Part shown: piece after piece, positions 5,177 to 61,486 of the stretch
Position numbering within the stretch: position 1 is the first letter of the stretch
Layout: each line of letters starts with the position of its first letter
DNA from: a virus
Strand: one strand, 5' to 3'
Virus record (IMG/VR): IMGVR_UViG_3300035698_017305
Location: 68,814-132,813 of that record
Length of the DNA: 64,000 bases
Position numbers and translations under genes: made by a program
The notes under the pieces: model-generated
The model's database searches: none
Seen by the model: the letters and a program-made list of their open reading frames with translations, nothing else
Told to the model about the DNA's origin: nothing

Positions 5177-5177
5177 C

Positions 5178-6690: not shown

Positions 6691-6722
6691 GCGGATAAGA
6701 GACTGGGGGAAAGCGCAAGGCA

Positions 6723-7679: not shown

Positions 7680-7688
7680 GAGAACTCA

Positions 7689-8147
7689 ATGAACACCTTC
7701 TTTGAAGAAACAGACGCCATCCGTAAAGAAGCCGGTGCCGGTAGACTTGCGGGTATGCTGGGTAACAAAGCTGTCCGTTATGGAGGCGGCGCTATGCTTG
7801 GGGCAGGAGCTCTAGCTGGAGCGGCTAAGGGCGGACATGAACTGGGACAGGATCGTTATACCCCAGAAGCATTACAGATGTCTATGGGTGACCAGAATAT
7901 GGGTACCTACGTGGCACCGAGCAAGACCGTTGACGAGTTCAAGGGCATCCTGGGAGAGCAGGGACCCGAAGCTGCTATGCAGTGGGCTCAGCAACAACCT
8001 AACTCTGGATACTTCGTGAATCCACAGCTAGTAGCTAGCGCCGTAGCCCAAGCCATTCAAGGCGGCGGTCAAGGGGGCGGAGGTGCCCCTAAGATGGCAT
8101 CATTCAGGGGGCAGGCAGTTCCATCCGTCCCTTTCTCTCGGAGATAG
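7689..8147 (+). CDS. Leader-family protein (TFFEETDAIRKEA), Gly/Ala-rich; candidate internal virion protein
   Basis: AGGAG RBS; shared leader; GGGAMLGAGALAGAAKGG segment. Confidence 0.75.
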   Translation: MNTFFEETDAIRKEAGAGRLAGMLGNKAVRYGGGAMLGAGALAGAAKGGHELGQDRYTPEALQMSMGDQNMGTYVAPSKTVDEFKGILGEQGPEAAMQWAQQQPNSGYFVNPQLVASAVAQAIQGGGQGGGGAPKMASFRGQAVPSVPFSRR

Positions 8148-8959
8148 ATGCTGTTGGCCTGACTAAGCAAGCTGGGCCATGGCTTCAAGGGCTTGGGCAG
8201 TTATCTGCTAAGGCCGAAGGTGCGTTTGGTGGAGCCCTTAAAAAGGGCTGGGGCCGCGTCTCTGGAGCTGTTAAAGGGGAGGTAAGTAACCTAAAGGGAG
8301 CTCCCGGTGCCGTTAAAGAATGGGCTGTTGGTGCAAATCCTTTAGGTAGCAGAGCCAAATCTGTACCTCAGGGCATGGGCAAAGGCTCCTTTAACATGAG
8401 TCCTCAAGTTCGCCAAGGGTATGATAAGTTCCAGAAACCTATGGGTAATATGGCACCGTCTGCTAAAGCCCCTGTAGGAAATATAAAGAACAACGTCGGT
8501 CAAATGCGTAGGTCCGGTTACAATGCTGCCGGTGGGGTAGAGGCCGGAGGTGGTGGTGGGCAAGGTGTTTACAGCAGGTTAGCCGCAAGCACAGGTCCTA
8601 GGCCATCAGGACAAAAGATGCAGGCAGCCAACACAGCCATACAAGACACTGCTCAGCATGAACAGATGAGTGCGGGTAGGAACTGGTTAAAGAAGACACT
8701 GGATGGAATCGGAGGCGGTAAGTTTGACGTCGATGGGTTGGTATCTGGAGCGAAGAAGTATGGCCCCGGAGTACTAGCTGGTCTAGGCGGGACAGCCGCA
8801 CTCGGTGCAGGGGTGTATGGTGCAGCCAAACACTTGGCACCAAAACTAGTCGGGCATGGTGTTAAGGGCTTTGTAAAACAGAACCCGTGGGTAATACCCG
8901 CCGCTGTAGGTGCCCCACTAGCCGCTGGTATGGCTGGCGGCGCTATGACGGGGAACTAA
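8123..8959 (+). CDS. Leader-family Gly/Ala-rich protein with two hydrophobic C-terminal segments; true start lies upstream of the annotated ATG 8375
   Basis: Frame is open from 8093 and encodes (I)RPFLSEIDAVGLTKQAG; there is no ATG/GTG/TTG before the motif, so it needs an ATC start at 8123 or a frameshift. Confidence 0.6.
   Translation: MRPFLSEIDAVGLTKQAGPWLQGLGQLSAKAEGAFGGALKKGWGRVSGAVKGEVSNLKGAPGAVKEWAVGANPLGSRAKSVPQGMGKGSFNMSPQVRQGYDKFQKPMGNMAPSAKAPVGNIKNNVGQMRRSGYNAAGGVEAGGGGGQGVYSRLAASTGPRPSGQKMQAANTAIQDTAQHEQMSAGRNWLKKTLDGIGGGKFDVDGLVSGAKKYGPGVLAGLGGTAALGAGVYGAAKHLAPKLVGHGVKGFVKQNPWVIPAAVGAPLAAGMAGGAMTGN
8129..8135 (+). other. Candidate -1 ribosomal frameshift heptamer C_CCT_TTC
   Basis: X_XXY_YYZ pattern in the 0 frame of ORF 7689, three codons before its stop; the -1 frame is open to 8959. 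Confidence 0.4.
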
Positions 8960-9885
8960 TGGCCCTTGAACTGATCACAGTAATAGTAAGCGATGATTCC
9001 GTACCTTCTCAATTAGTTGAGGGGGTTACTGTTCGTTTGTACCCTGAGGGTGAATACACCCACGTCCAAGAGCAAGAGACGGACGACGAAGGGGAAGCCA
9101 CCATGCTGATTGATGTGGAAGAACCATCTCAGCGATTTGAAGTGCGCTTCTACAAAAGGCAGACTCGATTTCCCACTAACACATTCATAGAGGTGGAGAG
9201 TCCAGCAGAGGACACCCAAGTATTCGACGTTACGGCAACAGTGCAAGATCGTCCTGTCTCTACCGACCCAAACCTCTGTCGGTGTTATGGGTACGCGTCG
9301 TCATTGAACACTGCCGGGTTACCACTGGAGACATCAGTAATATGGTTGTCCCCATACGATGAAACATTCGTAGGTCATGGCTTGTTTGTGGCAGGGAAAG
9401 CGCAAGTAAAAGTCGTCGGTACAGATGGGTTATTCTGGATTGATCTGGTAAGGGAACAGACCTACATTGCAGAGGTCCTCGGGATGTGTAATGTCTTAGA
9501 GTTCACTGTACCCGACAGATCATGGGCGGACTTCAGCGATTTGTTATTCATATACGTAGCTACATTGACACTAACACCGGATGACGATTCAGTATCCTTA
9601 GAGCAAGGCACTGAAACAGAGTTGGACTTGTCCGTAATCCTGTCTAACACTCAAGAGCTAACCGATTACGACGCAAGGAATTGGCTCACGATAGAGAGCA
9701 GTGATGTGTCGGTCGCTTCCATCAGATGGGAACTAAGTTCCAGGAAGCTGACCATACGAGGGGTAGCCACTGGGTCCACCACTATAACTATAGATGCGGA
9801 TCCGGATTACTCTCTCCCACGGGTGCCTCCTAAGGTGGTGGACCCTGTGACCATTACTGTAACGGTTGTGAGCGATGGAAGTTAA
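8959..9885 (+). CDS. Virion structural protein with a C-terminal Ig-like (Big_2-type) domain
   Basis: Start moved to ATG 8959 (TAATG coupling). C-terminus SVSLEQGTETELDLSV...ESSDVSVASI...LTIRGVATGSTTITI is a Big_2-type pattern. Confidence 0.7.
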   Translation: MALELITVIVSDDSVPSQLVEGVTVRLYPEGEYTHVQEQETDDEGEATMLIDVEEPSQRFEVRFYKRQTRFPTNTFIEVESPAEDTQVFDVTATVQDRPVSTDPNLCRCYGYASSLNTAGLPLETSVIWLSPYDETFVGHGLFVAGKAQVKVVGTDGLFWIDLVREQTYIAEVLGMCNVLEFTVPDRSWADFSDLLFIYVATLTLTPDDDSVSLEQGTETELDLSVILSNTQELTDYDARNWLTIESSDVSVASIRWELSSRKLTIRGVATGSTTITIDADPDYSLPRVPPKVVDPVTITVTVVSDGS

Positions 9886-11130
9886 ATGGAAAATGAGCTT
9901 AGGTCTTCAGTACAAGACTTGCTCGGTCGTGTTTCTTTCCCAGATGAATTCACCCGGCTGAGAGACACCGCTGCGCTAACGCTATACCTGTCTCCAGCAT
10001 CCTTCCCTTCTGTGTCTACAATGATACGCAACGAGGCCCTCCTGTACATGGGTGCCGCCGCCGATGCAGGGTTGTCTATAATACTAGCTCTGAAAGACTC
10101 CTGGAGACCAGAGGAAGGGTATACCAATGGGGTCGCCCCGTTAGAGAAGGCGGCTCAGGACATGAAGGTAGCGGCCCGGGCCCCATCAGGGGTTAAGAGC
10201 TCACAGATAGGGTCCTTTGTTAACAAGATTGAGAAGTTCGAAACAGGTATCAAGTCATCTGTAAGGGCGGGGGCTTCAGGAAAGACCGGCATGGATGCCA
10301 GTACCTACATAGATGAACAGTACATTCTCTTCACCGATAACTTGGTTAAGGGGGTGGCTTCTTGTTGGGGGTTGGTCGGAGCTTCAACATCCTATCTATC
10401 ATTCTTACCAACGGATTTATCCAATAGGATTATGGAAGCCGCAGGTGACATGATAGGAGAGCTTGCGGAGTACCTGTCTGAGGGGGGCGGACGAGGTGAA
10501 CAGTACTCGGTACTAGCTCTGACCTCTACTATAAAGGCAGTGGTTAAAGCTACTGACTCAGAAGTGGAGGTGGACGTACCAGACTCTCACGCTGAAGCTA
10601 TACAGACACTAGCCATTCTACTTAAGGAAGTAGATAAGTCATTTGGTACTATAGATTCTGACTTTTTCAGAGGGGTGTTGTCATCATCCTTGACATCTTC
10701 AGTTCAGTCTAAAGAGAAGGCCAGGGAGATGTCTAAGAGACTCATGCGATTCTTAGTCTTCGTGACCGATGACATCAGTGATGAGGTGTTGAGGTGGGTA
10801 GGTCCTACCTCTAGCCAAGACCCCACGGTCCTGGGAGTGTTAGAAGGGTACTCTGTCACTACCAGTGATGATTCTAACCAAGTAGTGTTAGGTATCATTG
10901 ATAGATTAGAGGACAGAGGGTACGATAGAGCTGCGGATTCTCTAAGGTCAGGGGACATAGAGGTCTTTGCAACAATGACTGAGGAGGAAGCTTCCTATGC
11001 TGGGGCTGCTACTGAAAGCCTGCGTAGGATCTCCCTATTCCAGAATAACAACAACGATATAGATTGGGTTGGTAAAGAGGAGCTGCTAAGCAGGACATTT
11101 CGCGGTGGGCTCCCATCATTGGAGGAATAA
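9886..11130 (+). CDS. Hypothetical mostly helical protein (414 aa), tail region
   Basis: Long ORF abutting both neighbours; no motif recognised. Confidence 0.7.
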   Translation: MENELRSSVQDLLGRVSFPDEFTRLRDTAALTLYLSPASFPSVSTMIRNEALLYMGAAADAGLSIILALKDSWRPEEGYTNGVAPLEKAAQDMKVAARAPSGVKSSQIGSFVNKIEKFETGIKSSVRAGASGKTGMDASTYIDEQYILFTDNLVKGVASCWGLVGASTSYLSFLPTDLSNRIMEAAGDMIGELAEYLSEGGGRGEQYSVLALTSTIKAVVKATDSEVEVDVPDSHAEAIQTLAILLKEVDKSFGTIDSDFFRGVLSSSLTSSVQSKEKAREMSKRLMRFLVFVTDDISDEVLRWVGPTSSQDPTVLGVLEGYSVTTSDDSNQVVLGIIDRLEDRGYDRAADSLRSGDIEVFATMTEEEASYAGAATESLRRISLFQNNNNDIDWVGKEELLSRTFRGGLPSLEE

Positions 11131-12157: not shown

Positions 12158-15100
12158 ATGGCTACCGATATGAAACAGTTTTTGGAGGAACTCCTTGGAG
12201 CATTCTCCCCAGATCTAGACTTGAGCGAAGGTTCGCCTGCTCAAGAAGAGTTGATTAACCCTATCATCAGTAGGATGGGCACCGACCCATTGGATACTGA
12301 TACCTATGCCTTCATAAAGGATAGGCTGTCTAGAGAGTATCCAGAGCTGGCATTAGGGGATCAGGAAGCCTTAACAGACTTCATGGTGAAGCCTCTTACC
12401 ATACTTATGGAGCCCTTCAAGAACTCCATTAACAGGATTAAGCAGGGGCAGACTCTACGGGACCCATCAGTTTTGACATCATCTGATGTAGACAACCTTG
12501 TGGCTAACCAATTTCTGACCCGAGATAAAGGGGCTAGGTCTACGGGCACCGCCCGGGTATACTTTAGGGCCCCAACGTTTGCTGAGGTCACCCCATACAA
12601 CCAGCTCTTGTCTGACACTGGGTTAACGTTCCTACCCACCGAGTTCCAGAGCATCACCGCTGAGTCCATGGCCCTTAACCGGGAGTCCAGGGCTAAGTAC
12701 TACTTCGATATCCAGGTAGTGGCCGAACAGGCTGGAACTAGTTACAACCTGACCCCAGGTAAACTGCAAAGCATTGATGGGCTGCCACAGGCTACTGGTT
12801 TAACTAACCTAACTGACATAGCTGGAGGTCTGGATGAGCAACCTCCTTCAGACTTTGCGGCGGAAGCTGAGAGGAGTACTACTGAGAGGTCCCTCAACAC
12901 GTTCAGAGGCATCTACACCCGCATCATGGATGATTACCCCAACGTCAGGTCTGTGGAAGTAGTAGGGTACAACGACCCTGAGATGGAGAGGGATGAAATA
13001 AGGGCTGATAACAGACCATTCACTATGCTGTCTGGGTTCTGCATCATCCTCTATGATTTAGTAGTGTTTGTGTCTGAGTTCGGTGACCTTGGCCCGGGTG
13101 GACTGTACCGCATTGAAGCAGGTGACACATTCAAGATGTCGTACTCTGATATATTCTACAAAGGTATGGCCTGGGCTGACAGATCAGAGGAACTTGAGAT
13201 TGAGAGGGTATACTTCAGTCTGTTGGACTTCCTGCCTAACATGGTGGGCCCTTCAGTGCATATCTTTAAGCTGAGTACCTTACCATCCGTGGATGCGTCG
13301 GTCATGCTTAACTCCGTGGCGGGATGGGGTCTTATCCAGAAGGACATGACTCCTAACATCACCTTGTCTGATATCCCTGGGGGCCTCACTTACGAGAGCA
13401 CTAGGAACGGTTCCCCTATGGTGGACAGCAACGCCATACATATTGGGGGGCATTCGGATGTGTATGTTAGACCGTACACTACTATGACAGACACCCTAAC
13501 TGTGTCCAACATTCTTGGTCTTTACCCTGAGAAGAACGGTGAGGACATGATCCTTACCACTGGTAGCAACGTTGTTTCGGTAGCGGAGTCTGAGACTAAT
13601 GCTGACTTCGACTTTACCGAAACAGTATCTCCTAGCATGGGCATTAAGATCTATGGGGTTGGTACATACAAGGTGCTGGCAGTAACTGCTACCTCCTTGG
13701 TGTTGGATGCCGAGATGCCTGCCACCAGAACTGGGGTTAGGTACAGGGCGTTCAGTGATATTGATGTGAGCTTGACCGAGAACAAACAACTATTGTATCC
13801 GCCTGATGGTGCTAATGATGCCGTTGGGTTACGCACTGATGTAGGAAGCGATGTAGTCAGACTACCTATCAACCCCAGATTGTATGGGGCTGTGGTGGGG
13901 GACACTATCGAGATAACTAGTGGCCTCGACCAAGGTTTCTATTCCATCGTTGAATTCATTGACAATTCTAGAGTAGAGATCAGCGGCTCCACTGGGTCAA
14001 CTGACACCACTACGTTCAAGCTGTTCAAACCTTTGGATAACATAACGCTTCCACTGGTCCGTATTAAAGACGTAGATCTTCTTGACACAACTGCTCAACC
14101 CACCGGGTTGAAGATCCCTTATGCTTACCCTGTTGATACTAGAAACACCCGCAGTTTTGGTGGAGCTAAAACAAAAGGGGAAGCAGCGGCTGGGTTTGTG
14201 CTACCAGAGCTTAAGTTCTGGGACGACTCGATTGTACCGTCCGGTCTAACCAACTTGGCGGCAGCCTCATCCATATGGCCTGATGAAGAGCCAGCAGGGT
14301 GGCCTGAAATGTTGCCTTGGCCACCCCCAACTATAGGAGCATGGTTTGGGTTCACAGTCCCCATGCTTACTGTAGGCCCTGGAGGAATCGGGTTTGAGTA
14401 CGCTACGGACACCGCCACACTGCTTGACCCTAAGCTGGCCTGCTGTGAAGATGGCATACCTGTAGTCATGCTAATCCCTGGCAGTGGTATCATTGACGGA
14501 AATGATGACTACCAGTTCAGTTTTGTGGAAGTATGTTTTCCTAACGCGGTATGGGATGGTGAGTCCAATGTATTCATAGGGCTACCTGATGTACCATGGG
14601 GTTCTATTGCAAAGTACTTTGATGCTATCAACACATCTGTCGGTGATGAGGTGTACGCACCCCCATTCCCTGATATACCACGCAACCCACTGAAGGATGC
14701 TGTGGCCGGGGATATACTGACAGTGAAGTCTGGGCTAGTAGAAGGCTCATACAAGATCAAGAAAGCCTATTGCCTACCATTCCACCTAGGGGATGTAGTG
14801 GATTACCTGTACGGTATCCCTGCAAAGCCGGATTGGTATCCTAGTTGGCAGGTATGGCCACCCATTTGGACACCATCTGATGACGATCCAGAGCCTGACT
14901 GGTGGGCTAAGCTAGTAGCGGCTCAATATGATGAAGCTGACTACGACTCAACTCAGTACGCTTTGCTTACCCAGTGGCCGCCGATATATCCTCCACTGAC
15001 TTCAGACCCACCTTGGTGGGACGCTGACGTCGCTGGTGGGGCTGCTGTAACATTCATCCCCGAGTTCGGTGGGAGTGGTTGGCCTACCGCTGACCCTAGC

Positions 15101-17854
15101 ACTGGAGTACCTACTGGCTGGGAAGAGTTCTGGCCATTGGAAGACACTCCTCCGTTCCCATACCCGCCAGCTTTAGAAGACTGGCCCCCATATACTCAGC
15201 CTGTTTTTTGGCCAGGGGCTTTGCCTCTGTCTCAAATACCGCTGCCTGTGGTTGGGGCGGGTGTTCTGCCAGACTTAAACTTGATGGTACCTTGGCCTCC
15301 TAAATCATGGACTCCCCCAGAGGATCCGCCTTGGTGGTGGCCTACTACGGGGGAAGGTGAGGCAGAAGGAGAAGGGTACGTTCAGGAGTGGCCCTGGGAT
15401 CCATATGATGGGGTAAGTGCCTACCCCTCATCCACAACTGACTCTACTACAGGTTCGTCTGATGTAACTGGGGCACTCACTACCCCCTTTACTATCGAGG
15501 CTTCTATAGTTGAGCTGGATGCACTGTTCCATGACAGATCTTCCGTTGTTAACCAACTGAATGAGATCCTTAACGATGAGGCACAACTAGGGTCTGTCAT
15601 AGAATCTATAGCGACACTGGCTGGGACACCCCTCACCGATGAGGAGGTGGCTATCTGGGTTGGTATGGTGCAGTCCTTTGTAACCCTGTTCGGAGAGAAT
15701 GTAGGGCTGTTAATATCAGTGTTGGGCACAGCGATTAACCTAGTGTTTGGGGTTAACATATCCTCTTGGTTAATACCCATTGTGTACAACCTTTGGGCCC
15801 TTATGATTACAGACGGCATAGGTACGGACACGTCCCAACTACTAGAGCTGGTTGAAGCGATGGGCATTGACCCTTCCCTCATCCCAGGACTTGAGGATCT
15901 GGAACTTGACTTCACTGTGCCTCCTGAGACTGTCAAGTATGCGTTTGAGCAGATCAAAGACTTGCTGTTCCCTGCATACTCAGTAGGAACACCGGCCCGT
16001 GGGTACCTACGTACTTACTTTATGAACCCCACCACGGTTCAGTTCGAGGGTAAGCACGCGTGGCCTTCACTGTTTATGACTGAGGTAGCTGGCGCTCCCA
16101 AGTTCTTTGCTGCTGATAATAGTGAAGACCCTTACGACCTCGTTCCTCCTAGAGATGAGGATGGCGGGGCGCTGGATACTGCATTACCCCGGGACTTGGT
16201 TGTAGTTAACCCTCTCGAAGGCATACTTAAGTTGACAGACCTGTCCAACCCGACGCTGTTGGAGCGGGGAGTGCTAGCCGGTACTGACCGGATTGAAATA
16301 CACGAACAGGTGTTCATTAACACCGAGCTTAGAGGACCATATGCACAGGGTTACTTAGGTGTAGCCGGTGTGTTGACCACTGCTGGGTCTACTGAGGTAG
16401 AAATACCCGTCGGTTGCCCTCAGACATTTACCCCAGATAACAAGGGGGATTTACTCTTCATAGAAGATGGAGATGACGAGGGCGGCTACGTTGTCACTCA
16501 GTGGGTGAACTCTAGGACAGTAGTGTTGGACAGGGAGATGTCTAAGACGTCAGTCCAAGGGGCAAAGATAGGCCAGGGCGTGGTCATGTTTGACGCGGAC
16601 GAAGAGACCAACCTTGTCATTGGTGATGCTGTGTTTGACGCCGGAGACGTGGGTCTGTACATCACTGTATGGGGAGGGGTAGAGCCAGAGATGGACGGTA
16701 CCTTCCTCGTCACAGCGGTTGGGGAAGATCTAGATACCCTAACCGTTACTAGATCTAGTGGTAACTTCCCTGAAATTACTGCGGGTATGACAGAAGATGA
16801 GATGAACGTCTACAGTGTGTGCTGGGTTATCCACTCAGCCCCTGAAGACGACCCCATCCCCACGTCTGGTGGGGGTACTGAGTTGTACGCCGTCCAACCG
16901 TTCAGGCTGTACAGAAAGGTACCCAAGACCTATGACATCCTTACCATCGACACCACGTTGGATCTGGATGCATCCACCTTCTCAGTACAGAATGCTGGGA
17001 GAGGTGCCCTCACAACCCAAGTAAGGCCCAGTGACTACTGCCCTTACCGTGTGGTTAGACCGTTTGTTCAGAGGATTAGTGCCACGGAGATGGCTAATAA
17101 CCGCACCATAGGAGACATGTACTACTTCGACGTCATGGTTTACTCACTATCTCATGACCCGTCTGTGAACTTGGATGAAGCTACTAGGTTCGAACCTATA
17201 GTGGGCACCTACTCATCAGATGGATGGAGAGCAGAGGTAGAGGACACTAAGTACACATTCTCTACGTTGGAAGAGCCCAGTGTGGTGCTGAGCTCACAGG
17301 TCCTCCCTAGCGGTAGCCCGGATAGCGGAGAGAACTATATCCAGTTGTTGGATCAGAGTATCCAGATCAACTATGACCGATCACCAGTGGTAGCTACTAT
17401 CCAGAACTTACTTACGTCCCGACAGGACAGGGTAATAGACTGTAGCCCACTGGCTAGGCACTTCCTGCCATCGTATGTAACGGTCCGGAAGACCTATACT
17501 GGGGGCAGTGAGTCCAACGTTGTGGCGAAGTCCGTTGTTGACTACATCAATGGTCGTGGGGCTATTGATCCTATTCAAATGGACGAAGTAGAGGACCTGA
17601 TTAAGAAGACAGGATCTAACCACATCACTCAAGAGTCTTGGATCATATCGTTGACCCATGACTTGGACCGTAGGATTGTGGGCAACAGAACCAGAGATAT
17701 GATAGGAGGCTCCGAGCCCTTCTACTTCAAGGGTTCTAACAGGATCTCGTACTTCATAGCTGGTGAGGACATCAGTGGGGTTGACTTGGACGAGGTAGGG
17801 GACGATGCGGTAGTGTTTATGGACCGCTCTCCGGGAGCAATCTCATTTAGATAA
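12158..17854 (+). CDS. Baseplate J-like wedge protein (P2 gpJ / Mu gp47 family), greatly extended (1898 aa)
   Basis: RDKGARSTGTARVYF, VVAEQAGTSYNL, LTNLTDIAGGLDEQ and VRSVEVVG are Baseplate_J patterns; C-terminal VAKSVVDYING...MDEVEDLI also fits. Confidence 0.8.
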   Translation: MATDMKQFLEELLGAFSPDLDLSEGSPAQEELINPIISRMGTDPLDTDTYAFIKDRLSREYPELALGDQEALTDFMVKPLTILMEPFKNSINRIKQGQTLRDPSVLTSSDVDNLVANQFLTRDKGARSTGTARVYFRAPTFAEVTPYNQLLSDTGLTFLPTEFQSITAESMALNRESRAKYYFDIQVVAEQAGTSYNLTPGKLQSIDGLPQATGLTNLTDIAGGLDEQPPSDFAAEAERSTTERSLNTFRGIYTRIMDDYPNVRSVEVVGYNDPEMERDEIRADNRPFTMLSGFCIILYDLVVFVSEFGDLGPGGLYRIEAGDTFKMSYSDIFYKGMAWADRSEELEIERVYFSLLDFLPNMVGPSVHIFKLSTLPSVDASVMLNSVAGWGLIQKDMTPNITLSDIPGGLTYESTRNGSPMVDSNAIHIGGHSDVYVRPYTTMTDTLTVSNILGLYPEKNGEDMILTTGSNVVSVAESETNADFDFTETVSPSMGIKIYGVGTYKVLAVTATSLVLDAEMPATRTGVRYRAFSDIDVSLTENKQLLYPPDGANDAVGLRTDVGSDVVRLPINPRLYGAVVGDTIEITSGLDQGFYSIVEFIDNSRVEISGSTGSTDTTTFKLFKPLDNITLPLVRIKDVDLLDTTAQPTGLKIPYAYPVDTRNTRSFGGAKTKGEAAAGFVLPELKFWDDSIVPSGLTNLAAASSIWPDEEPAGWPEMLPWPPPTIGAWFGFTVPMLTVGPGGIGFEYATDTATLLDPKLACCEDGIPVVMLIPGSGIIDGNDDYQFSFVEVCFPNAVWDGESNVFIGLPDVPWGSIAKYFDAINTSVGDEVYAPPFPDIPRNPLKDAVAGDILTVKSGLVEGSYKIKKAYCLPFHLGDVVDYLYGIPAKPDWYPSWQVWPPIWTPSDDDPEPDWWAKLVAAQYDEADYDSTQYALLTQWPPIYPPLTSDPPWWDADVAGGAAVTFIPEFGGSGWPTADPSTGVPTGWEEFWPLEDTPPFPYPPALEDWPPYTQPVFWPGALPLSQIPLPVVGAGVLPDLNLMVPWPPKSWTPPEDPPWWWPTTGEGEAEGEGYVQEWPWDPYDGVSAYPSSTTDSTTGSSDVTGALTTPFTIEASIVELDALFHDRSSVVNQLNEILNDEAQLGSVIESIATLAGTPLTDEEVAIWVGMVQSFVTLFGENVGLLISVLGTAINLVFGVNISSWLIPIVYNLWALMITDGIGTDTSQLLELVEAMGIDPSLIPGLEDLELDFTVPPETVKYAFEQIKDLLFPAYSVGTPARGYLRTYFMNPTTVQFEGKHAWPSLFMTEVAGAPKFFAADNSEDPYDLVPPRDEDGGALDTALPRDLVVVNPLEGILKLTDLSNPTLLERGVLAGTDRIEIHEQVFINTELRGPYAQGYLGVAGVLTTAGSTEVEIPVGCPQTFTPDNKGDLLFIEDGDDEGGYVVTQWVNSRTVVLDREMSKTSVQGAKIGQGVVMFDADEETNLVIGDAVFDAGDVGLYITVWGGVEPEMDGTFLVTAVGEDLDTLTVTRSSGNFPEITAGMTEDEMNVYSVCWVIHSAPEDDPIPTSGGGTELYAVQPFRLYRKVPKTYDILTIDTTLDLDASTFSVQNAGRGALTTQVRPSDYCPYRVVRPFVQRISATEMANNRTIGDMYYFDVMVYSLSHDPSVNLDEATRFEPIVGTYSSDGWRAEVEDTKYTFSTLEEPSVVLSSQVLPSGSPDSGENYIQLLDQSIQINYDRSPVVATIQNLLTSRQDRVIDCSPLARHFLPSYVTVRKTYTGGSESNVVAKSVVDYINGRGAIDPIQMDEVEDLIKKTGSNHITQESWIISLTHDLDRRIVGNRTRDMIGGSEPFYFKGSNRISYFIAGEDISGVDLDEVGDDAVVFMDRSPGAISFR

Positions 17855-52307: not shown

Positions 52308-54353
52308 ATGTCGTGGACTGTAGCACAAAACACAGGGAATGATAAATACCTCAGTAATATAGGTGCGTCCGGAGGGGGCCAACTAACACGTAAAGGTATG
52401 TACCCATCCCCATTCTTTGACATCGCCCAGACGTATCTGCCACATACCGTTAAGAGTATGTTCAAGTGGTGCAGGTACTACTACATGGTGAACCCGGTTA
52501 TCAACGCTTCTATCACTAAGCTGGCGTCGTACCCGGTTAGACCTCTCACATACAAAACAACAGATAAGCAGCTCAAGGAAATGTACCAGGAGCTGGCGGA
52601 AGTGCAGTTGAAGATCAGGTCATTCCTGGTGGATGTAGGGTTAGACTACTACACATATGGCAACGCGTTCATATCTGTAGAGTACCCATTCAAGAAGCAC
52701 TTGAAATGTAAGAAGTGCGGCAAGCTGTTCCCCATCCGGGAAGTGAAGTACAGGTTCCGTGGTATGAAGTACTACATGAACTGCCCGGACTGTAGTACCT
52801 ACGAGCAAGAATCTGACGTAGTAGATGTTAACGTGAAGTCTGTGAGAGACATCAAGTTGGTCCGCTGGAACCCAGAGGATATGAATGTTGACCACAACTA
52901 CGCCACTCTGCAAACTACATACTCATATAACATCCAGCAGTCCGTCAAAAATGACATTATGATGGGCAAAAAGAAGGTTATTGAGAATGTACCGCACTAC
53001 TACGTTGAAGCCGTCAGGAAGCAAAAGTCCATCGTGTTCAATGATAATGCGATCTACCACTTCCAACGGGGGATCATCAGCCAGAAGAATCGTGGATGGG
53101 GTATGCCAATCATGCTCCCTGTGCTCAAGAATGCGTTTTACCTCCAAATACTCCAAAAGGGGCAAGAGGCCATAGCGATGGAGCACATCGTTCCTATGAG
53201 AGCGTTGTTCCCACAGGCGGCTGATCCTTTGAGTTCCCCGGTAGCTAACGTTAACCTGTATGAGTGGCGGGAGAGAATGAACGAAGAGATCTCTAAGTGG
53301 AGGCAGGATGGTAACTACATACCTATCCTTCCGTTCCCTGTTGGGCACCAAATCATTGGGGGTACTGGCCGGGCACTGATGCTACACCAAGAGATAAAAC
53401 AGTGGCTGGAACAGATAGTCATCGGTATGTCTCTACCACTTGAATTCGTGTTTGGTGGTATGTCATACACAGGGTCTAATGTATCCATGCGGGTACTTGA
53501 GAATGACTTCATCAGATACATCGAAGATCTGCGGGGGGTACTCCGGTTCATATTCAAGAACATAGCCACCTACATGGGGTGGACTTATGTAAAGATAGAC
53601 TTCCAGCCCTTTAAGATGGCGGACGATCTACAGAGGTCAGCCTTTAAGCTCCAGATGTCACAAGCCGGAATGTTCCCGGAACGTTGGCTCATGGAGGACA
53701 TTGATGTTGACCCTGATGACGCTTACGAAGTAATGGCTCAAGAGTCTCAACGTAAGATGGATCAGCAGAAGAAACAGCAGATCGCTATGGCTGATGCTCA
53801 GGGCGAGGCCCAGGCGCGCATGATGCGTTACCAGACCAAAGCCCAGATGGAGCAGTTCCAGAATCAACAACGAGGACAGCCTGCGTCTACATCTCAGGAG
53901 TTGGGACCACCCAATGCGGGTACTACTGGGGCTGACCCCCCAGCTAGCTTGCCAGCAAATGGGCCACCGCCGCCACAGCAGCAACAACAGCAACAGCAGA
54001 ATTCTGCCATGGGGCTACCGGCTGAGACTAAGCTGTACCCAGAAAATGCTCAGAAGCAGCCAGAGAGTGGAGTTCCAAAAGGTGTGCAGTCTCCACTAGC
54101 AGGTACCAATATGGGGTCGGGTGGAGGATTCGATGTTATGTACGTAGCTAAAAAAGCAGCTCATGCTTTAATGAATATGGACCCGACTAGTCGGTACTCC
54201 AAGCTGAATGAGCTGCGTTTTTCTAACCCTCAGATACACGGACTGGTGACCCAGTTCATGCAAGAGGGGCAAGGAAGCCAAGTAGACACTATGGATATAG
54301 CTATGCCTAATCAGAAGCCTCCTCGTAGGCCCTCTAACAAAGCTGTAGGTTAA
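52308..54353 (+). CDS. Portal protein with a Zn-ribbon insertion and a Gln/Pro-rich C-terminal tail
   Basis: NPVINASITKLASYPV; DYYTYGNAFI; IYHF...GWGMPIMLPVL...GQEAI; IVIGMSLPLEFV are portal-type patterns. Confidence 0.85.
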   Translation: MSWTVAQNTGNDKYLSNIGASGGGQLTRKGMYPSPFFDIAQTYLPHTVKSMFKWCRYYYMVNPVINASITKLASYPVRPLTYKTTDKQLKEMYQELAEVQLKIRSFLVDVGLDYYTYGNAFISVEYPFKKHLKCKKCGKLFPIREVKYRFRGMKYYMNCPDCSTYEQESDVVDVNVKSVRDIKLVRWNPEDMNVDHNYATLQTTYSYNIQQSVKNDIMMGKKKVIENVPHYYVEAVRKQKSIVFNDNAIYHFQRGIISQKNRGWGMPIMLPVLKNAFYLQILQKGQEAIAMEHIVPMRALFPQAADPLSSPVANVNLYEWRERMNEEISKWRQDGNYIPILPFPVGHQIIGGTGRALMLHQEIKQWLEQIVIGMSLPLEFVFGGMSYTGSNVSMRVLENDFIRYIEDLRGVLRFIFKNIATYMGWTYVKIDFQPFKMADDLQRSAFKLQMSQAGMFPERWLMEDIDVDPDDAYEVMAQESQRKMDQQKKQQIAMADAQGEAQARMMRYQTKAQMEQFQNQQRGQPASTSQELGPPNAGTTGADPPASLPANGPPPPQQQQQQQQNSAMGLPAETKLYPENAQKQPESGVPKGVQSPLAGTNMGSGGGFDVMYVAKKAAHALMNMDPTSRYSKLNELRFSNPQIHGLVTQFMQEGQGSQVDTMDIAMPNQKPPRRPSNKAVG

Positions 54354-54935: not shown

Positions 54936-55034
54936 TCAGTTACAAAAGCCAAGAACCCCATCAACCACGCCGTCATGAATAACCGAATCATAATGCAACT
55001 CCTGTGTGTTTGGAGTCTTATGTCAGATAATACG

Positions 55035-55064
55035 TTGACAGTTAGGCCCAATTATAAGTATGAT
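55035..55064 (+). promoter_or_regulatory. Host sigma70-type promoter TTGACA-N18-TATGAT upstream of the RNA polymerase gene
   Basis: Perfect -35 hexamer and 5/6 -10 hexamer ending 38 nt before ATG 55102, in an AT-rich gap. Confidence 0.65.
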
Positions 55065-55101: not shown

Positions 55102-58100
55102 ATGCCCGAATTTAGCCCTGACAGGCAATTTGAGGCCCTCAAAGAAGGAGTCGTGGATGTCATCAAGTCCCAGCTCCCTATTGAGGGTCGCCGTCGTAAA
55201 CTTCAAGTTAACGATGTATATGTCGATGACAGACTAGACTCCGATGACCTCATATCCCAGACTGAGGCCAAAGTTGGGGGGAAAAACTGGGTAGTACCAA
55301 TCAGAGCCAAACTATCTTTGATCGACAAAGAGACTGGCAAGACGGTTGAGAAGAACGATGTAATAGTCGCCCACCTTCCTAAACCGACCAATAGACTTTC
55401 GTATATTCTCCGGGGTAAGGAGTACCAGCCCGTCACACAGTTACGCCTGAAGTCTGGTGTATATGTGAGGCGCACAGATGTTGGTGACTTGGAAGCCATG
55501 TTCAACCTTGAAAAAGGTAGAGGCTTCAATGTTATGTTTGACCCCAAGAGCCGTAAGTTCACCATGAAGTATGGTAACTCCAACATATCCTTGTACCCTA
55601 TCTTGAAAGCTCTGGGTGTGAGTGATGGGGATATCACCAAAGCTTGGGGGGATGAAGTACTAACGTCCAACCAGAAGAGCAAGCCCCTCACTGAACTCAA
55701 CCGGTTTTACAAGACTGAGACAGGTAAGCTGGCCAAGACAGAAGAGGAAGCTGCCTACCTAGTGCAGGATGTACTTGGAGCAACCAAACTACGATCTGAC
55801 ACTACAGAAGTTACCTTGGGTAAGTCCTTTGACAAAGTAAGCGGGGAGGCGCTGATAGCTGCTTCTCATAAGCTTCTGAAGGTAGCCCGGGATGCAGCGG
55901 ACACTGATGATAGAGACGCTCTTATGTTCAAAAAGGCGTTGGGGGTGGAGGATACTCTTCCTGCTGAAGTTAGATCTGCGGCATGGCGTACTAAGGGTAA
56001 GCTGAGTAACAACATTGACAACCCGAATAGTGATATCCGTAAGATCATAGGTTCCGACACATTCGATAAGACCATCACGCAGTTCTTTACACAAGGGTCG
56101 CTGTCAGAAGCCATTGAGCACGTTAACCCGCTACAGTTACTGGCGGGAGCAGCCCAGACCACTATCATGGGTAAAGGCGGTATCACTAAAGAGGATCAGA
56201 TCCGTGAACCTCAGCAGATGATCAACCCGTCCCAGTTCAGTTTCCTAGATCCGGTCCACACACCTGAATCATCCAGGACCGGCATCACTCTGTACATGCC
56301 CCTAGGCACCCATAAGGATGGGGAGGACCTGAAGAGTAGGCTGTACAATATCAAGACCGGTAAGTTTGAGGACGTGAAGGCTACTGATGCCGCGACCAAG
56401 ACAATTGTTTACGCTGACCAAGTAGAATGGAAGAAGGATGGTAAGCCCAAGGCCAAGTTCAGGCAGGTGAAGTCGAGAGCCCCTGGGGAAGAGATCAAAA
56501 TGACGGCATTCAAGGATGCTGACTACGTGGTTCCCCACGCTACGGGGCTCTTTGACTTCGTTACCAACTTGGTGCCTTTCCTGGAGTCTAACCAGGGAAA
56601 TAGAGCGTCCATGTCTACTAGACAATATGAGCAAGCTATCTCTTTGAAGGATAGGGAGGTACCTCTAGTACAAGTGGCCGCCCCGGGCGGTAAGACATTC
56701 GAAGACATAGTAGGTAAGTTTACCGCTAGGCTCTCTCCTGTAGCGGGCAAGGTAATGTCTGTAGAGAAGAATAACATCAAGGTCAAGGATGGTAAAGGTA
56801 AGGTACACATGGTATCTCTTTACTCCCATTACCCTTTGAACGATAAGTATTCCCAGCTCAACTCTGAGCCAGTGGTTAAGGCTGGGGATGTTGTGAAGAA
56901 AGGGCAGTTGGTAGCGGACTCTAACTTCACTAAGGACGGCACGTTCGCGCTAGGTGTAAACCTGGAGGCGGCGTATGTCCCTTATAAGTCCTTCAACCAT
57001 GATGATGGCATTGTTATATCCGACGCAGCATCTAAGAAACTTACCTCTGAGCATTTGTATCAGAGCAAGTACGTAGCTGACACTGAAGCTCAAGTACAGC
57101 TAGCCGAGCTGACCAAGAAGAAGCTAGGTACGAAGAAGGACCTATACCAGAATTACTTCCCCAACAGGGTCACCCCAGAGCAAGGTGGGAAACTAGACTC
57201 TGATGGAGTTATCCGTGAAGGTGAGGCTGTTGACGCAGGTGACTTACTAGTTGCCGGACTTAAGCGTAGACCTATGCGGGAAGAAGACATCATGTTGGCC
57301 AGACTGGATAAGTCTTTGGTCAGACCATTTGATGATGCTTCCGTTCGTTGGGATGAGACGTCCCAAGGTAAGGTTGTACGGGTTGTAAAAGACCGGGTTG
57401 GCGACAAGGTTAGGGGTGCCAGGGTATATGTCAGTACTGCGGAAGCCGCTAAAGTAGGTGACAAGCTAGTAGGTAGGCATGCTAACAAGGGGGTTATCAC
57501 CCTAATTCTACCTGATGCTGAGATGCCTAAAAAGAAAGACGGGACCCCCGTTGAGATCCTGATCAACGCCACAGGTATCCCTTCCCGTATGAACGTGGGG
57601 CAGGTACTGGAAACCGCTGCGTCTAAGATAGCTGAGAAAAAAGGGAAGATCTATATTACGGACAACTTCGGAGACCCAGATAGGGATAATATCCGTAGGG
57701 TTCAAGCTGATCTTAAGGCGGCAGGGGTGACAGATACAGAGCCACTATGGGATGGAAAAGATGATCCCGATAAAGATCCATCACTAGGGACGCCGTTGGC
57801 TGGTAAGCAGTACATTCTCAAGCTTCAACAAATGGTTGAGCACAAGATGGCCTCTAGATCCGGTGGGCCGGGCAGACCATATGATTACAATGACCAACCG
57901 GCTAGTGGAACCGGGGTGCAGGCCATGGATGCGCTGGCTGTGTACAGCCTCTTGTCTCATGGGGCTAAGTCAAACCTAAGAGAAATGATGACATACAAGA
58001 GCTCCCGGAACGATGATTTCTGGGACGCTCTACAACTAGGAAAACCTCTACCCATGCCCGAGACCCCGTTTACTTATGATAAGTTTGGGTCGCTACTAAA

Positions 58101-61100
58101 GGCATTGGGTATTGATATGAGGAAGAGCGGTAACGAGATATCATTCATACCCCTAACTGATAAAGAGACTCGTAAGATCTCTAATGGTGCATTGAAAGAC
58201 CCTGGCCGTATGGTGTTGGGTAAGAACCTACAGCCTGAGAAGGGTGGGCTGTTTGACCCTAAGGTCACTGGAGGCTTGGAGGGTAAGCACTGGAGTCATA
58301 TCGAACTTACGGAGAAGGTTCCAAACCCTGTGTTTGAGGGGGCTATCCGAAGAACTCTCGGCCTTACTGAAAAGGAATTCAGCGGGATAATAAACCACGA
58401 GACTACGGTCGGTGGGGAGACAGGGTTTAAGGCTCTTGAGAAGATGCTGGACTCTCTGGATGTTGACTCTGAGATTGGGTCCATTGAGAGTAAGATGGCG
58501 GATTTATCCGGGGCTAACCTAGCTAAGGCCAACATGAGGCTGAAGCAATTGAAAGCCCTTAGTACATTGAAGATGAAGCCTTCTGATGCGTACATGATGG
58601 GGACGGTCCCAGTACTGCCGCCTAACATGAGGCCGATGGTTATCACTCCTGATGGAAGGCTATCTGGGGATGACGCCAATGACCTGTACAAGTCAGTAGG
58701 TCTTACCAACATGCAGTTGGCCAAGGTAGATAAAGGGTTCCCGGATGAGTTCAAGGACCCACTAAGGGTTGAGCTGTACGATCAATTGAAAGCTCTAACT
58801 ATAACTGGAGTGGTAGACCCGACTAAGCGTAAGAAGCGCGGTATCATGGAGTTTGTGGCGGGGCAGAACCCTAAGAACAGTTTCTTCCAGGCTAAGATGA
58901 TCCGTAAGGCTCAGGATATGAGCGCCAGGGCCATCATTAAGCCTGACCCTAACCAGAGTATTGATGAGATAGGTCTGCCCAGGACGGCGGCGAGAGAAAT
59001 GTACAAGCCGTTCATAGTCAGGGAGCTGTCATTGTCTGGGTATACCCCACGAGAAGCTCAGGTTATGGTAGAGGAGGCCCATCCTAATGCTGATAAGGTT
59101 CTTGAGCAGATCGTGCAAGACAGACCCGTGATTATAAAGCGTGACCCTGCGTTGCACAGATACAGCATCATGGCTTTTAAGCCTAGGCTGCTGGACGGTA
59201 AAACTATTGATATCCACCCGTTGGTAACGAATGGGTTCAACGCTGACTTCGATGGGGACGCCATGGCAGCATATGTCCCTGTGACCCAAGAGGCCATTGA
59301 TGAAGCCAGACTGATGTTCCCAAGTAACCACTTGTTCAGTGCTAGTAGTGGGAAACTCACTACGATGCCACAGCAGGAAGCGGTACTGGGGCTGTACGAA
59401 CTATCCAAGTGGAAACCGGGCGACAATAAGGAATTTAAGTCCTTCGCCGAGGCGGTTAAAGCGGCTGATAAGGGAGGGGTAACCCTGAATGAGGTTATCC
59501 GGGTTAAGGGCAAGCCTACCACTGTGGGCCGGGTAATCCTATATAATTCACTACCCTCAGATATACGTACTGATGACATGCTGTACAAGCAGAGTTTCCG
59601 TATGGATAAAAAGACTACTGGTAAGTTCCTGGAGGGGGTGGCTAAGAAACACCCTAAGCAGTTCGACTTGGTAGCCAATGAGATCTACAGAAGAGGGGCT
59701 GACTTTGCTTACCGTATGGGGGCATCTGTTAGCTTGAACGACTTTGCTGTGGACAAGGGTCTAAGAGCCGCAGTATTCTCGGAAGCGGACACTAAGATCA
59801 ACGCATTAAGACGCAGGGGAGCCAGTCAAAAACGCATAAACAAGGAGTCATTAGAAGCCTATGGTGATGTGACTGATAAAATGGAGACCGCCCTTCATAA
59901 CAGATATGAAGGAGAATCAAACGGACTGTACTCAATGGTTAGTTCTGGTGCCAAGGGTAGCATGACTAACTTCAGGCAAATTACTGGCTCCCCTGTTCTA
60001 GTTCAAGGGTTCATGGGTAAACCTGTTCCTATTCCTATTAGAAAGTCCTACTCGGAAGGGCTAGACCTAGCTGACTACTTCACTAGTATGCACGGAGCCC
60101 GTAAGGGTACCACTGACAGGGTTAAAGGAACGTCAAGGCCCGGTGCCATGACCAAGGAACTCATCAACGCTAACTTGGACCAAGTGGTTAACAAGGATGA
60201 TTGTGGTACCACCCGTGGTATTGGTATGGATATAGAAAGTCGAGAGGTATTGGATAGGTTCTTAGCATCTGATGTCAAGATTGGGTCCAGGGTTATCCCA
60301 AAAGATTCTTTGGTAACCCCAGAGCTATTAGCTAAGCTCAAGAACGCCAAGGTCACCAGGGTCATAGTACGTAGTCCGCTTAAGTGCCAAGAAGATGAGG
60401 GTATATGTGCGAAATGCTACGGGTTAACCGAGAGGGGACACACCCCCGAGATGGGTACCAACCTGGGCGTTATCGCGGCTCAATCACTAGGTGAACCAGC
60501 TACGCAGTTGGTTATGAGAACGTTCCATACAGGATCTGCTGTTACCAGTGGGCGTAAGCTAACTGACCAGTTGACCCGTGTTTACGATGAGCTGTTGCGT
60601 ATGCCCGCGAAACTGCAAGGGTCCGCTGTACTAGCCTCCAGAGAAGGTACGGTACAGAAGATAATCCCCGATAAGGTAGCGGGTGGGTTCAACATCACTG
60701 TGGCTGGTACCAGTCACTACGTTCCAGGGGACAGACCGGTTGATAAGAAGTCCCTGTTAGGTAAGAAGGTTAAGAGGGGTGATCCACTCTCTGATGGTCC
60801 TATTAACCCTCATGAGCTGCTGAAACTGACGGATATGCCGACTGTCCGCAATTACTTGACGGATGAAGTACACAATATCTACGACAGGGAAGCGGGTACT
60901 AAGAGAAAGAACGTAGAGGTCATAATCAAGTCTTTGACAGACACTGGGGTTGTGGATGATCCAGGGGACTCAGCATCCGTTATACGGGGCGACAACATGA
61001 GACTGACCACTGCGGCCCAATTCAATGCCAAAGCCTCTGAGGATGGCCTGAAGGAGATCAAAATCAAGCCTGTACTGAAAGGGCTTAACCAGATACCGAC

Positions 61101-61278
61101 ATTTGCTAACGAGGATGTTCTGTCTAGGCTTAACTTCCAGCATCTCAAAGACACGCTGTTACAGTCAGCAGCTTTGAACTGGAAGTCTAGGATCCATGGA
61201 CCGAACCCAATTCCTGGTCTTGCTTATGGTGCCGAATTCGGAAAACCTCCGAAGGGTAGCCCCAAGACTTGGTACTAA
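55102..61278 (+). CDS. rpoBC: Multisubunit-type DNA-directed RNA polymerase with beta and beta' fused in one 2058-aa chain
   Basis: Beta motifs: LDPVHTPES, GDKLVGRHANKGVI, GIPSRMNVGQ, LREMMTYKS. Beta' motifs: VLPPNMRP, RDPALHR, catalytic NADFDGD (59239-59259), SGAKGS, HGARKG, CQEDEGICAKCYG, AQSLGEPATQLVMRTFH. Confidence 0.97.
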   Translation: MPEFSPDRQFEALKEGVVDVIKSQLPIEGRRRKLQVNDVYVDDRLDSDDLISQTEAKVGGKNWVVPIRAKLSLIDKETGKTVEKNDVIVAHLPKPTNRLSYILRGKEYQPVTQLRLKSGVYVRRTDVGDLEAMFNLEKGRGFNVMFDPKSRKFTMKYGNSNISLYPILKALGVSDGDITKAWGDEVLTSNQKSKPLTELNRFYKTETGKLAKTEEEAAYLVQDVLGATKLRSDTTEVTLGKSFDKVSGEALIAASHKLLKVARDAADTDDRDALMFKKALGVEDTLPAEVRSAAWRTKGKLSNNIDNPNSDIRKIIGSDTFDKTITQFFTQGSLSEAIEHVNPLQLLAGAAQTTIMGKGGITKEDQIREPQQMINPSQFSFLDPVHTPESSRTGITLYMPLGTHKDGEDLKSRLYNIKTGKFEDVKATDAATKTIVYADQVEWKKDGKPKAKFRQVKSRAPGEEIKMTAFKDADYVVPHATGLFDFVTNLVPFLESNQGNRASMSTRQYEQAISLKDREVPLVQVAAPGGKTFEDIVGKFTARLSPVAGKVMSVEKNNIKVKDGKGKVHMVSLYSHYPLNDKYSQLNSEPVVKAGDVVKKGQLVADSNFTKDGTFALGVNLEAAYVPYKSFNHDDGIVISDAASKKLTSEHLYQSKYVADTEAQVQLAELTKKKLGTKKDLYQNYFPNRVTPEQGGKLDSDGVIREGEAVDAGDLLVAGLKRRPMREEDIMLARLDKSLVRPFDDASVRWDETSQGKVVRVVKDRVGDKVRGARVYVSTAEAAKVGDKLVGRHANKGVITLILPDAEMPKKKDGTPVEILINATGIPSRMNVGQVLETAASKIAEKKGKIYITDNFGDPDRDNIRRVQADLKAAGVTDTEPLWDGKDDPDKDPSLGTPLAGKQYILKLQQMVEHKMASRSGGPGRPYDYNDQPASGTGVQAMDALAVYSLLSHGAKSNLREMMTYKSSRNDDFWDALQLGKPLPMPETPFTYDKFGSLLKALGIDMRKSGNEISFIPLTDKETRKISNGALKDPGRMVLGKNLQPEKGGLFDPKVTGGLEGKHWSHIELTEKVPNPVFEGAIRRTLGLTEKEFSGIINHETTVGGETGFKALEKMLDSLDVDSEIGSIESKMADLSGANLAKANMRLKQLKALSTLKMKPSDAYMMGTVPVLPPNMRPMVITPDGRLSGDDANDLYKSVGLTNMQLAKVDKGFPDEFKDPLRVELYDQLKALTITGVVDPTKRKKRGIMEFVAGQNPKNSFFQAKMIRKAQDMSARAIIKPDPNQSIDEIGLPRTAAREMYKPFIVRELSLSGYTPREAQVMVEEAHPNADKVLEQIVQDRPVIIKRDPALHRYSIMAFKPRLLDGKTIDIHPLVTNGFNADFDGDAMAAYVPVTQEAIDEARLMFPSNHLFSASSGKLTTMPQQEAVLGLYELSKWKPGDNKEFKSFAEAVKAADKGGVTLNEVIRVKGKPTTVGRVILYNSLPSDIRTDDMLYKQSFRMDKKTTGKFLEGVAKKHPKQFDLVANEIYRRGADFAYRMGASVSLNDFAVDKGLRAAVFSEADTKINALRRRGASQKRINKESLEAYGDVTDKMETALHNRYEGESNGLYSMVSSGAKGSMTNFRQITGSPVLVQGFMGKPVPIPIRKSYSEGLDLADYFTSMHGARKGTTDRVKGTSRPGAMTKELINANLDQVVNKDDCGTTRGIGMDIESREVLDRFLASDVKIGSRVIPKDSLVTPELLAKLKNAKVTRVIVRSPLKCQEDEGICAKCYGLTERGHTPEMGTNLGVIAAQSLGEPATQLVMRTFHTGSAVTSGRKLTDQLTRVYDELLRMPAKLQGSAVLASREGTVQKIIPDKVAGGFNITVAGTSHYVPGDRPVDKKSLLGKKVKRGDPLSDGPINPHELLKLTDMPTVRNYLTDEVHNIYDREAGTKRKNVEVIIKSLTDTGVVDDPGDSASVIRGDNMRLTTAAQFNAKASEDGLKEIKIKPVLKGLNQIPTFANEDVLSRLNFQHLKDTLLQSAALNWKSRIHGPNPIPGLAYGAEFGKPPKGSPKTWY

Positions 61279-61288
61279 GGTATACACT

Positions 61289-61486
61289 ATGTACAAAGAG
61301 TCGTTCTTAAGAGAGTGGGATGATATTAGGAAGGTGGCCGCTATGGGGGTGCAATCTATACCCCAGATACAAGCGCCTAAGGCCATCAAGATGGACGCAT
61401 CAATGAAGGCACCTACAGTACCCAATGCAGGACTTAGGGCCCCTAAGCCTCCACACGTTGGGGCTTCACAAACGCTAGGTACATAA
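61289..61486 (+). CDS. Small leader-family protein (SFLREWDDIRKVA); candidate internal virion protein
   Basis: Start moved from 61196 to ATG 61289, just after the RNAP stop; Pro/Ala/Lys-rich remainder. Confidence 0.65.
   Translation: MYKESFLREWDDIRKVAAMGVQSIPQIQAPKAIKMDASMKAPTVPNAGLRAPKPPHVGASQTLGT

Follow-up and report, generated by a model that had tools for sequence, protein, structure and literature searches.

A complete RNA polymerase core in one chain

In the genome of a large uncultured phage from a salt lake, a single gene specifies the whole catalytic core of a bacterial-type RNA polymerase (RNAP), the beta subunit being followed without interruption by beta' in one polypeptide. The gene lies at positions 55102–61278 of the stretch of DNA analysed here (hereafter the window). 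The window covers the 64 kb at the right-hand end of a linear virus record from IMG/VR (IMGVR_UViG_3300035698_017305, 132,813 bp), which CheckV estimates to be ~71% complete. We read the enzyme, as a rather probable interpretation, as a sigma-dependent phage RNAP that is encoded without alpha, forms a two-protein holoenzyme with a phage sigma factor and is probably packaged in the virion.

The RNAP open reading frame (ORF), on the plus strand like all features below unless otherwise stated, comprises 2058 stop-free codons (2058 aa, P0001); it begins with ATG, with GAGGGA 8 nt 5' of the start, and ends with a TAA stop at 61276–61278. Pfam places Rpb2_2, Rpb2_3 and Rpb2_6 at residues 139–925 and Rpb1_1 to Rpb1_5 at residues 1133–1851, i.e., beta domains precede beta' domains, which is the cellular order. 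A preliminary description of the sequence had proposed an intact, bacterial-type beta and then beta' in a single ORF, and the uninterrupted frame, the order of the Pfam domains and the presence of the catalytic motifs bear this out. As far as can be judged from its sequence, the fused protein is very probably an active RNAP core.

For the beta' half, the match to solved bacterial beta' chains has an E-value of ~1e-127. The beta half is more divergent, E. coli beta being aligned by BLAST only from residue 246 on. An AlphaFold2 (AF2) model of residues 1–545, built on 42 family sequences (predicted local distance difference test, pLDDT, of 88.7), superposes on bacterial beta chains with template modelling (TM) scores of 0.75–0.81 and E-values down to 8e-34, and a confident model of residues 870–1335 (pLDDT 81.5) matches bacterial beta' chains. 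The beta module (residues 1–1011, 55102–58134) comprises the lobes, the fork, the flap with its flap-tip helix and the catalytic barrel, and is devoid of the E. coli SI1, SI2 and bi11 regions, while the beta' module (residues 1012–2058, 58135–61275) is devoid of SI3 and of the C-terminal tail. No second RNAP-like gene was found in the 132.8-kb record.

Conserved motifs and lost parts

Motif conservation was judged in 25 family members. The beta active-site motif GDK..GRHANKG, with the two catalytic lysines, is located at 57457–57492 (residues 786–797) and is conserved in the family as GDK..GRHxNKG, and the catalytic NADFDGD (59239–59259, residues 1380–1386) is invariant. Alignment with E. coli places the bridge helix region at 60079–60180 and the trigger loop, from which the SI3 insert is absent, at 60490–60651; the second beta' zinc (Zn) site (60202–60417) is formed by C1701, C1762, C1769 and C1772, all invariant. 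The NADFDGD motif, bridge helix, trigger loop and second beta' Zn site had been described as intact at the outset, and each of them is indeed conserved or invariant in these 25 proteins. The same holds for the flap-tip helix and for the beta' clamp helices (coiled coil, 58672–58806), the latter being the predicted dock for sigma region 2. With these elements the core retains what catalysis and sigma docking require.

The beta' N-terminal zinc-binding domain, in turn, is lost. At 58270–58290 it is replaced by a few residues (G-L-E-G), the E. coli beta' segment 64–88 (C70, C72, C85 and C88) has no counterpart, and there is no cysteine in RNAP residues 1012–1130. This deletion, also present in the aligned family members, had been implied but not stated in the preliminary description. 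In the equivalent of rifampicin cluster I (56083–56175) we noticed six differences from E. coli (Q513E, F514A, D516E, H526G, R529Q and S531T), at what we take to be established rifampicin-resistance positions. Since cluster I differs at all six, the phage enzyme is predicted to be rifampicin-insensitive.

E. coli beta and beta' together exceed the phage chain by 691 residues, in line with the ~700 aa first noted, and in the family alignment the E. coli-only segments of at least 10 residues total ~650 residues. Nevertheless, the compactness was overstated, because the comparison was made with the insert-rich E. coli chains: ~470 of the residues that the phage chain lacks belong to inserts specific to the E. 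coli lineage (SI1, SI2, the bi11 region and SI3). As the smallest rpoB plus rpoC sum among 61 bacterial pairs sampled from species genomes is 2276 residues, the true deficit is ~220 residues, which correspond to the zinc-binding domain, the beta and beta' N-termini, beta' 147–177, the beta' C-terminal tail and small loops.

The beta/beta' junction

The join between beta and beta' (58111–58152, residues 1004–1017) sits at the point of contact of the separate chains in cellular enzymes. When the protein is aligned with E. coli, only two residues separate the C-terminal strand of beta from the strand equivalent to beta' residue 16 onward, E. coli beta' residues 1 to ~15 having no counterpart in the phage RNAP. 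The AF2 model of residues 870–1335 draws these last beta and first beta' strands as a beta-hairpin with a two-residue turn, at pLDDT 90 or more; the nearly seamless junction of the preliminary description is thus recovered both by alignment and by modelling.

A stop at the junction, against which reads were to be compared, was not seen: contigs from three salt-lake metagenome runs span the junction (X1, 57769–58857; X2, 57914–58179; X3, 57699–58148) with zero differences from the window, at low depth and with the proviso that one of the three runs may be the source sample. A stronger argument for a real fusion than these bridging contigs is that the same junction is conserved in hundreds of relatives.

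A family of fused phage polymerases

In a search of 5.8 billion proteins we identified at least 120 protein clusters that share the fusion, most of them 2000–2140 residues long and 36–45% identical to the RNAP over its full length; longer clusters contain intein or homing-endonuclease domains. Such domains (PF14528, PF14890, PF05204 and PF03161) occur, one to several per gene, inside the RNAP genes of P0002, P0035, P0094, L061, L077, L079 and others. The closest known protein is 45–46% identical, and a single-protein search of IMG/VR yielded no close relative. When HMMER was run with the beta' half, the 150 best representatives all had E-values below 1e-182, and nearly all of these matches begin near residue 1000 of proteins of ~2050 residues.

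A scan with the RNAP family profile retrieved at least 524 IMG/VR contigs, and locus architecture was counted in the best 80 of them. One complete uninterrupted RNAP frame, of 1975 to 3596 codons, is present in 58 of these 80 loci, the longest frames bearing inteins; in nine others a contig end truncates an otherwise open single frame. About 11 loci are split inside beta', near residue 1460–1510, and approximately half of these also hold a beta'C gene of 604–641 aa, while two have in-frame stops. None of the 80 is split at the beta/beta' boundary. Several individual loci deserve mention. In a 125-kb contig (L091, JGI 3300028626) a 1524-aa beta gene is separated from a 1036-aa beta' gene by nine small genes, followed by a LAGLIDADG-like gene, and in L092 the RNAP gene is in pieces, split at or near the beta/beta' boundary. 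L047 (9042–13946) and L082 (8532–14036) have single in-frame stops after which the RNAP frame continues directly, for which recoding or pseudogenes are possible explanations.

The family also has cultured members, namely Salmonella phage Arash (OQ632216) and Vibrio phages D69, D148 and D181, whose RNAPs show full-length homology to that of the window, at 30–33% identity. They differ in that their chain is divided between two genes, the cut falling within beta' near residue 1470, whereas the window chain is whole.

Trees were calculated with FastTree for 947 beta and 1003 beta' columns, including 21 bacteria. The two trees are congruent: the fused family forms one clade, on a stem of 1.1–1.5 substitutions per site from the bacteria (support for the separation of 0.92–0.96), and the window RNAP is nested within it in both. 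The beta'-internal split forms (D69 and four IMG/VR loci) constitute one nested subclade, that of the cultured relatives, and L091 is nested among fused forms. From this nesting of split forms inside the fused family, it follows that the fusion is ancestral and that the splits are secondary. The phylogenetic comparison of the two halves that had been proposed at the start therefore supports a monophyletic phage family apart from bacteria, but the fusion turns out to be family-wide and not special to this phage.

These data also bear on the possibility that the gene is a recent capture of a host rpoBC, or bacterial contamination in a viral bin, to which the strongly bacterial-like beta' half might have pointed. 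The nearest proteins (36–46% identity) all belong to the phage family, and the contigs that encode them, up to 200 kb long, show conserved phage synteny. Bacterial genomes yield at most 32% identity; a search of genome contigs returned only ordinary bacterial rpoB-rpoC operons within that limit and no prophage copy, and L093, which had looked compact, proved to be a normal two-gene operon. Moreover, the family is monophyletic on its long stem, and the gene is flanked by portal, baseplate and helicase genes. With the nearest relatives all in phages, a long stem and phage synteny, we consider both origins refuted and their probability negligible.

Phage sigma factor, promoters and terminators

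The presumed partner of the RNAP is a sigma-70-family factor of 257 aa with regions 2–4, encoded at 5385–6158 of the window. The ORF matches PHROG 351 (sigma factor) at 4e-12 and, weakly, Pfam Sigma70_r3. A search of PDB sequences by phmmer with the single sigma sequence gave no match, whereas a five-sequence sigma profile matches solved RpoD, RpoS, SigA and FliA chains over regions 2–4 at E ~1e-9. One orthologue is present in each of five IMG/VR relatives (E 1e-33 to 1e-50), so that the earlier statement that the RNAP is accompanied by a phage sigma extends beyond this record.

In a complex prediction of the sigma with beta' residues 1012–1335, the score was 0.81, versus 0.01 for the best of three controls, a mark attained in 58 of 80 solved complexes but in only 2 of 110 mismatched pairs. 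At least 59% of the contacts were common to the runs, and the partner pLDDT was 72 or more. The predicted interface brings the clamp helices (1193–1228) together with sigma residues 71–87. Since sigma region 2 and the clamp helices are a textbook pair, this result may reflect likeness to solved holoenzymes and not binding. We hold it highly likely that the RNAP uses the phage sigma.

A candidate promoter for such a holoenzyme is TGACATAAG. TGnCATAAG occurs 12 times in the whole record, against 4.1 in shuffles, and always on the minus strand; 11 of the 12 copies are called intergenic and the twelfth lies inside a doubtful ORF of 50 codons. Most are found 28–40 nt before a start codon, facing minus-strand genes, mostly in the left arm, and one copy (55017–55025, minus strand) points away from the RNAP gene. 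The motif resembles an extended -10 element with G in place of the final T of TATAAT, which is one of the two most important positions for sigma-70 recognition. Because of the replacement of this key T, we interpret TGnCATAAG as a putative phage-specific promoter that would be read by the phage sigma. In the relative with the most similar sigma (G003), TGGCATAAG occurs eight times, or nine counting one TGTCATAAG, versus a single occurrence of the control pattern; the other four of the five relatives show no excess of TGNCATAAG.

Outside the window, in the left part of the record, several minus-strand GC-rich hairpins have TTTTTAGCT directly after them (record positions 2362, 8441, 8996, 15129, 32491, 45167 and 61924). 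These hairpins are intrinsic-terminator-like, have a fixed AGCT tail and often lie just upstream of a TGnCATAAG copy. Such hairpin-plus-U shapes, if they act as terminators, suit a bacterial-type enzyme.

Alpha, omega and a putative two-protein holoenzyme

In bacteria, the alpha dimer is regarded as an obligatory scaffold for the assembly of beta and beta'. The preliminary description had reported neither alpha nor omega in the window, and neither is found there or in the whole 132.8-kb record, in which PF01000 and PF01193 (alpha) and PF01192 (omega) match nothing, a search for rpoA and rpoZ that covers a record ~71% complete. Likewise, PF01000 matches nothing in the complete Arash and D69 genomes and nothing credible in five IMG/VR relatives that are 91–100% complete (one spurious match contains internal stops), and PF01192 is absent from the same five relatives. 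The alpha searches were positive in 14 of 14 control genomes.

Most probably, the fused core and the phage sigma-70-family factor would constitute a two-protein holoenzyme with no phage-encoded alpha or omega, which would read extended -10-like TGnCATAAG promoters and would stop at ordinary hairpin-plus-U terminators. That the RNAP needs no alpha at all is a narrower claim, towards which the sequence data incline us only slightly. The idea that it is the fusion that may allow assembly without alpha is weakened: full covalent linkage is not required, since Arash and D69 (inside beta') and L091 (at the boundary) have re-split the chain, and the secondarily split Arash and D69 still encode no alpha.

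The fused core might instead still assemble on the host alpha dimer, perhaps with omega, and replace only the host beta and beta'. This would be in keeping with the bacterial type of the enzyme over its whole length (31% identity to bacterial beta' in the beta' half, with the match to solved chains given above), with the natural bacterial RpoBC fusions, which still use alpha, and with the re-split family members, in which the parts still assemble and something besides covalent linkage must hold them together. However, the hosts of a family that spans 32–68% GC and many habitats would demand repeated re-tuning of a host-alpha interface, the beta' C-terminal tail is truncated, and a packaged enzyme, if it is one, would have to find alpha after injection. 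Furthermore, the non-virion RNAPs of phiKZ and AR9, which are of the multisubunit type, function without alpha (PMC7598289). We judge dependence on host alpha unlikely, and the reading we still prefer is a self-contained machine of core plus sigma that does without alpha.

Gene neighbourhood and virion packaging

A portal-like gene (681 aa, 52308–54353) lies upstream of the RNAP gene, and the portal-RNAP order is kept in most relatives and in Arash. Arash and most of the 80 loci also share the wider order helicase (minus strand), o557, o308, portal-like, RNAP, d397 and d351. Pfam and PHROGs gave no match for the neighbours d397 and d351, nor for most of the large structural proteins.

As a gene of the head module, the RNAP gene would probably be expressed late, and the enzyme would be packaged and injected along with the DNA so as to set the next infection going. 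We propose packaging because the gene sits beside the portal gene and because virion preparations of a cultured relative are rich in its RNAP and sigma: in the "structural proteome" of Arash, Gp206 is detected more than any other protein (128 unique peptides, 3516 spectra), and the list also includes Gp216 (1210 spectra) and the sigma Gp10 (467 spectra) (PMC10585845). Virion packaging of the window RNAP seems to us about as likely as not.

Six otherwise unrelated ORFs (starting at 4943, 5166, 7689, 51543, 61289 and 62948, all plus strand) open with a leader of the approximate form F-L-x-E-x-D-x-I-x-K-E-A. It is found within 20 residues of the start, and three of its bearers (51543, 61289 and 62948) flank the portal and RNAP genes. 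This distribution suggests that the neighbouring leader ORFs encode processed head proteins, in which the leader may be a capsid-targeting or maturation signal. One of them, an ORF of 65 codons (61289–61486), starts 10 nt after the RNAP stop and is not given as a gene of its own in the default ORF list.

Several points weigh against the proposal of a self-contained, packaged core-plus-sigma system. The activity of all family members is a prediction from sequences and structural models, and the phage record is ~71% complete, which limits the alpha search. The absence of omega is weaker evidence than that of alpha, because omega is small and divergent and a homologue may be missed. TGnCATAAG is enriched in only one of the five relatives (G003), and its link to the enzyme rests on sequence. 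As for packaging, the RNAP itself does not carry the N-terminal leader shared by the neighbouring putative head proteins. Contamination of the Arash preparation is likely, since 116 of 272 proteins were listed, including ribonucleotide reductases, and no CsCl or PEG step is mentioned (PMC10585845). Finally, the RNAP gene has its own sigma-70-like promoter, TTGACA-18-TATGAT (55035–55064), which matches at 11 of 12 positions, ends 38 nt before the ATG and would allow early expression by the host RNAP without packaging.

The last three points are what an unpackaged enzyme would lead one to expect: the host RNAP would read the gene early from the sigma-70-like promoter, and the phage enzyme with its sigma would then transcribe middle and late genes, T7-style. 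The promoter is one of just three such good matches in the 132.8 kb. On the other hand, it is not conserved, a comparable one being present in just 3 of 41 relatives; the genome shows no excess of sigma-70-like sites (14, versus 21 in shuffles), which would leave few entry points for the host RNAP; and the gene stands beside the portal in the head module across the family. We give this T7-style scheme somewhat less than even credence. The most extensive form of the packaged core-plus-sigma proposal, i.e., a widespread family of two-protein, host-independent systems in which an alpha- and omega-free core and a sigma are both packaged in the capsid and injected, and early genes are read from TGnCATAAG promoters that host sigma-70 could not use, is put forward tentatively and, taken as a whole, seems doubtful to us.

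Elsewhere in the window, a protein of 1898 aa (12158–17854) matches the baseplate wedge family (PHROG 6, 1.5e-10) with its first 270 residues; the other giant ORFs of the window (1043, 1759, 1092 and 750 aa) have no family match.

Comparison with known systems

The RpoBC proteins of Helicobacter and Wolbachia are products of housekeeping genes, are ~2800–2900 aa long, keep the zinc-binding domain and are encoded in genomes that also encode alpha and omega. The phage RNAP resembles them in that the beta C-terminus is in frame with the beta' N-terminus. It differs in its length of 2058 aa, in the lack of the zinc-binding domain, in forming a separate clade and in that no rpoA or rpoZ was found in the record.

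Among phages, phiKZ, AR9, crAss gp66 and YonO provide two-barrel RNAPs that work without alpha, some of them virion-packaged (PMC7598289, PMC7824862). The phiKZ and AR9 enzymes are distinguished from the window RNAP by their 4–5 polypeptides, by a far greater divergence and by having no sigma-70-family factor, while crAss gp66 and YonO are single-chain but show no recognisable beta/beta' similarity outside the barrels.

The cultured relatives are closer. They too are fused at the beta/beta' junction, Arash Gp206 (1525 aa) aligning to window RNAP residues 2–1473, and Arash and D69 share with the window phage the portal gene just upstream and the absence of an alpha gene, in their case from complete genomes. 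The Arash genes for Gp206 and Gp216 are 4.7 kb apart, with opposite-strand genes between them, and in D181 and D148 a homing endonuclease lies between the two parts. The paper on Arash names the two proteins beta and beta' and leaves the fusion unremarked (PMC10585845), whereas its "beta" (Gp206) also holds the N-terminal 460 residues of beta'.

The preliminary description had suggested that the phage may belong to the group of Weinheimer and Aylward (2020), the mReC (multisubunit-RNAP-encoding Caudovirales), which are tailed phages that encode beta and beta' (PMC7481178). There are likenesses: mReC and the window phage are uncultured tailed phages of 100–300 kb with beta and beta' branching outside the cellular clades, and some mReC were likewise recovered from saline and sediment metagenomes. 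Nevertheless, membership was not borne out. In Supplementary Data 2, every metagenomic phage entry has separate gene ids for beta and beta', with lengths of ~1000 or ~1365 aa for beta and ~900–1010 aa for beta', and the main text uses "fused" and "fusion" for crAss-like phages only (PMC7481178). The listed mReC are thus two-gene systems, none of them a fusion of ~2050 aa, and from the two different ids in every entry we conclude that the fused family is absent from the published list; the screen, which used one COG per protein, probably missed fused genes. Several mReC contigs carry two beta/beta' sets (~1010+905 and ~1365+1005 aa), reminiscent of virion/non-virion pairs (PMC7481178). Our search of the literature turned up no description of a phage RNAP of bacterial type in a single chain.

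Phages of the type of Carin-5 (Cobetia) and YerA41 (Yersinia) resemble the window phage in having their own sigma gene, in their case adjacent to bacterial-type RNAP genes. They differ in that the genes are separate, with sigma first, then beta' (1083 aa) and last beta (927 aa), the reverse of the cellular order, and in that identity to the window RNAP is only 23–24%. In the trees they group with the fused family against bacteria, but on long branches. In the Carin-5 (L174) operon (3547–10372), both large genes are annotated "subunit beta", and the exact NADFDGD is present in neither.

Set beside these systems, the window RNAP is close enough to the cellular enzymes for motif-by-motif alignment, and it would allow a direct test of a minimal bacterial-type transcription machine; the cultured family members (Salmonella phage Arash and the Vibrio phages), which grow on laboratory hosts, make these questions bench-testable. 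As a compact and orthogonal pair, probably insensitive to rifampicin, the core and sigma could also serve as a tool. If the proposal is true, no other natural RNAP of bacterial type would have been shown before it to do without the alpha assembly platform, and it would add a third route to independence from the host RNAP, beside the T7/N4-type and phiKZ-type enzymes.

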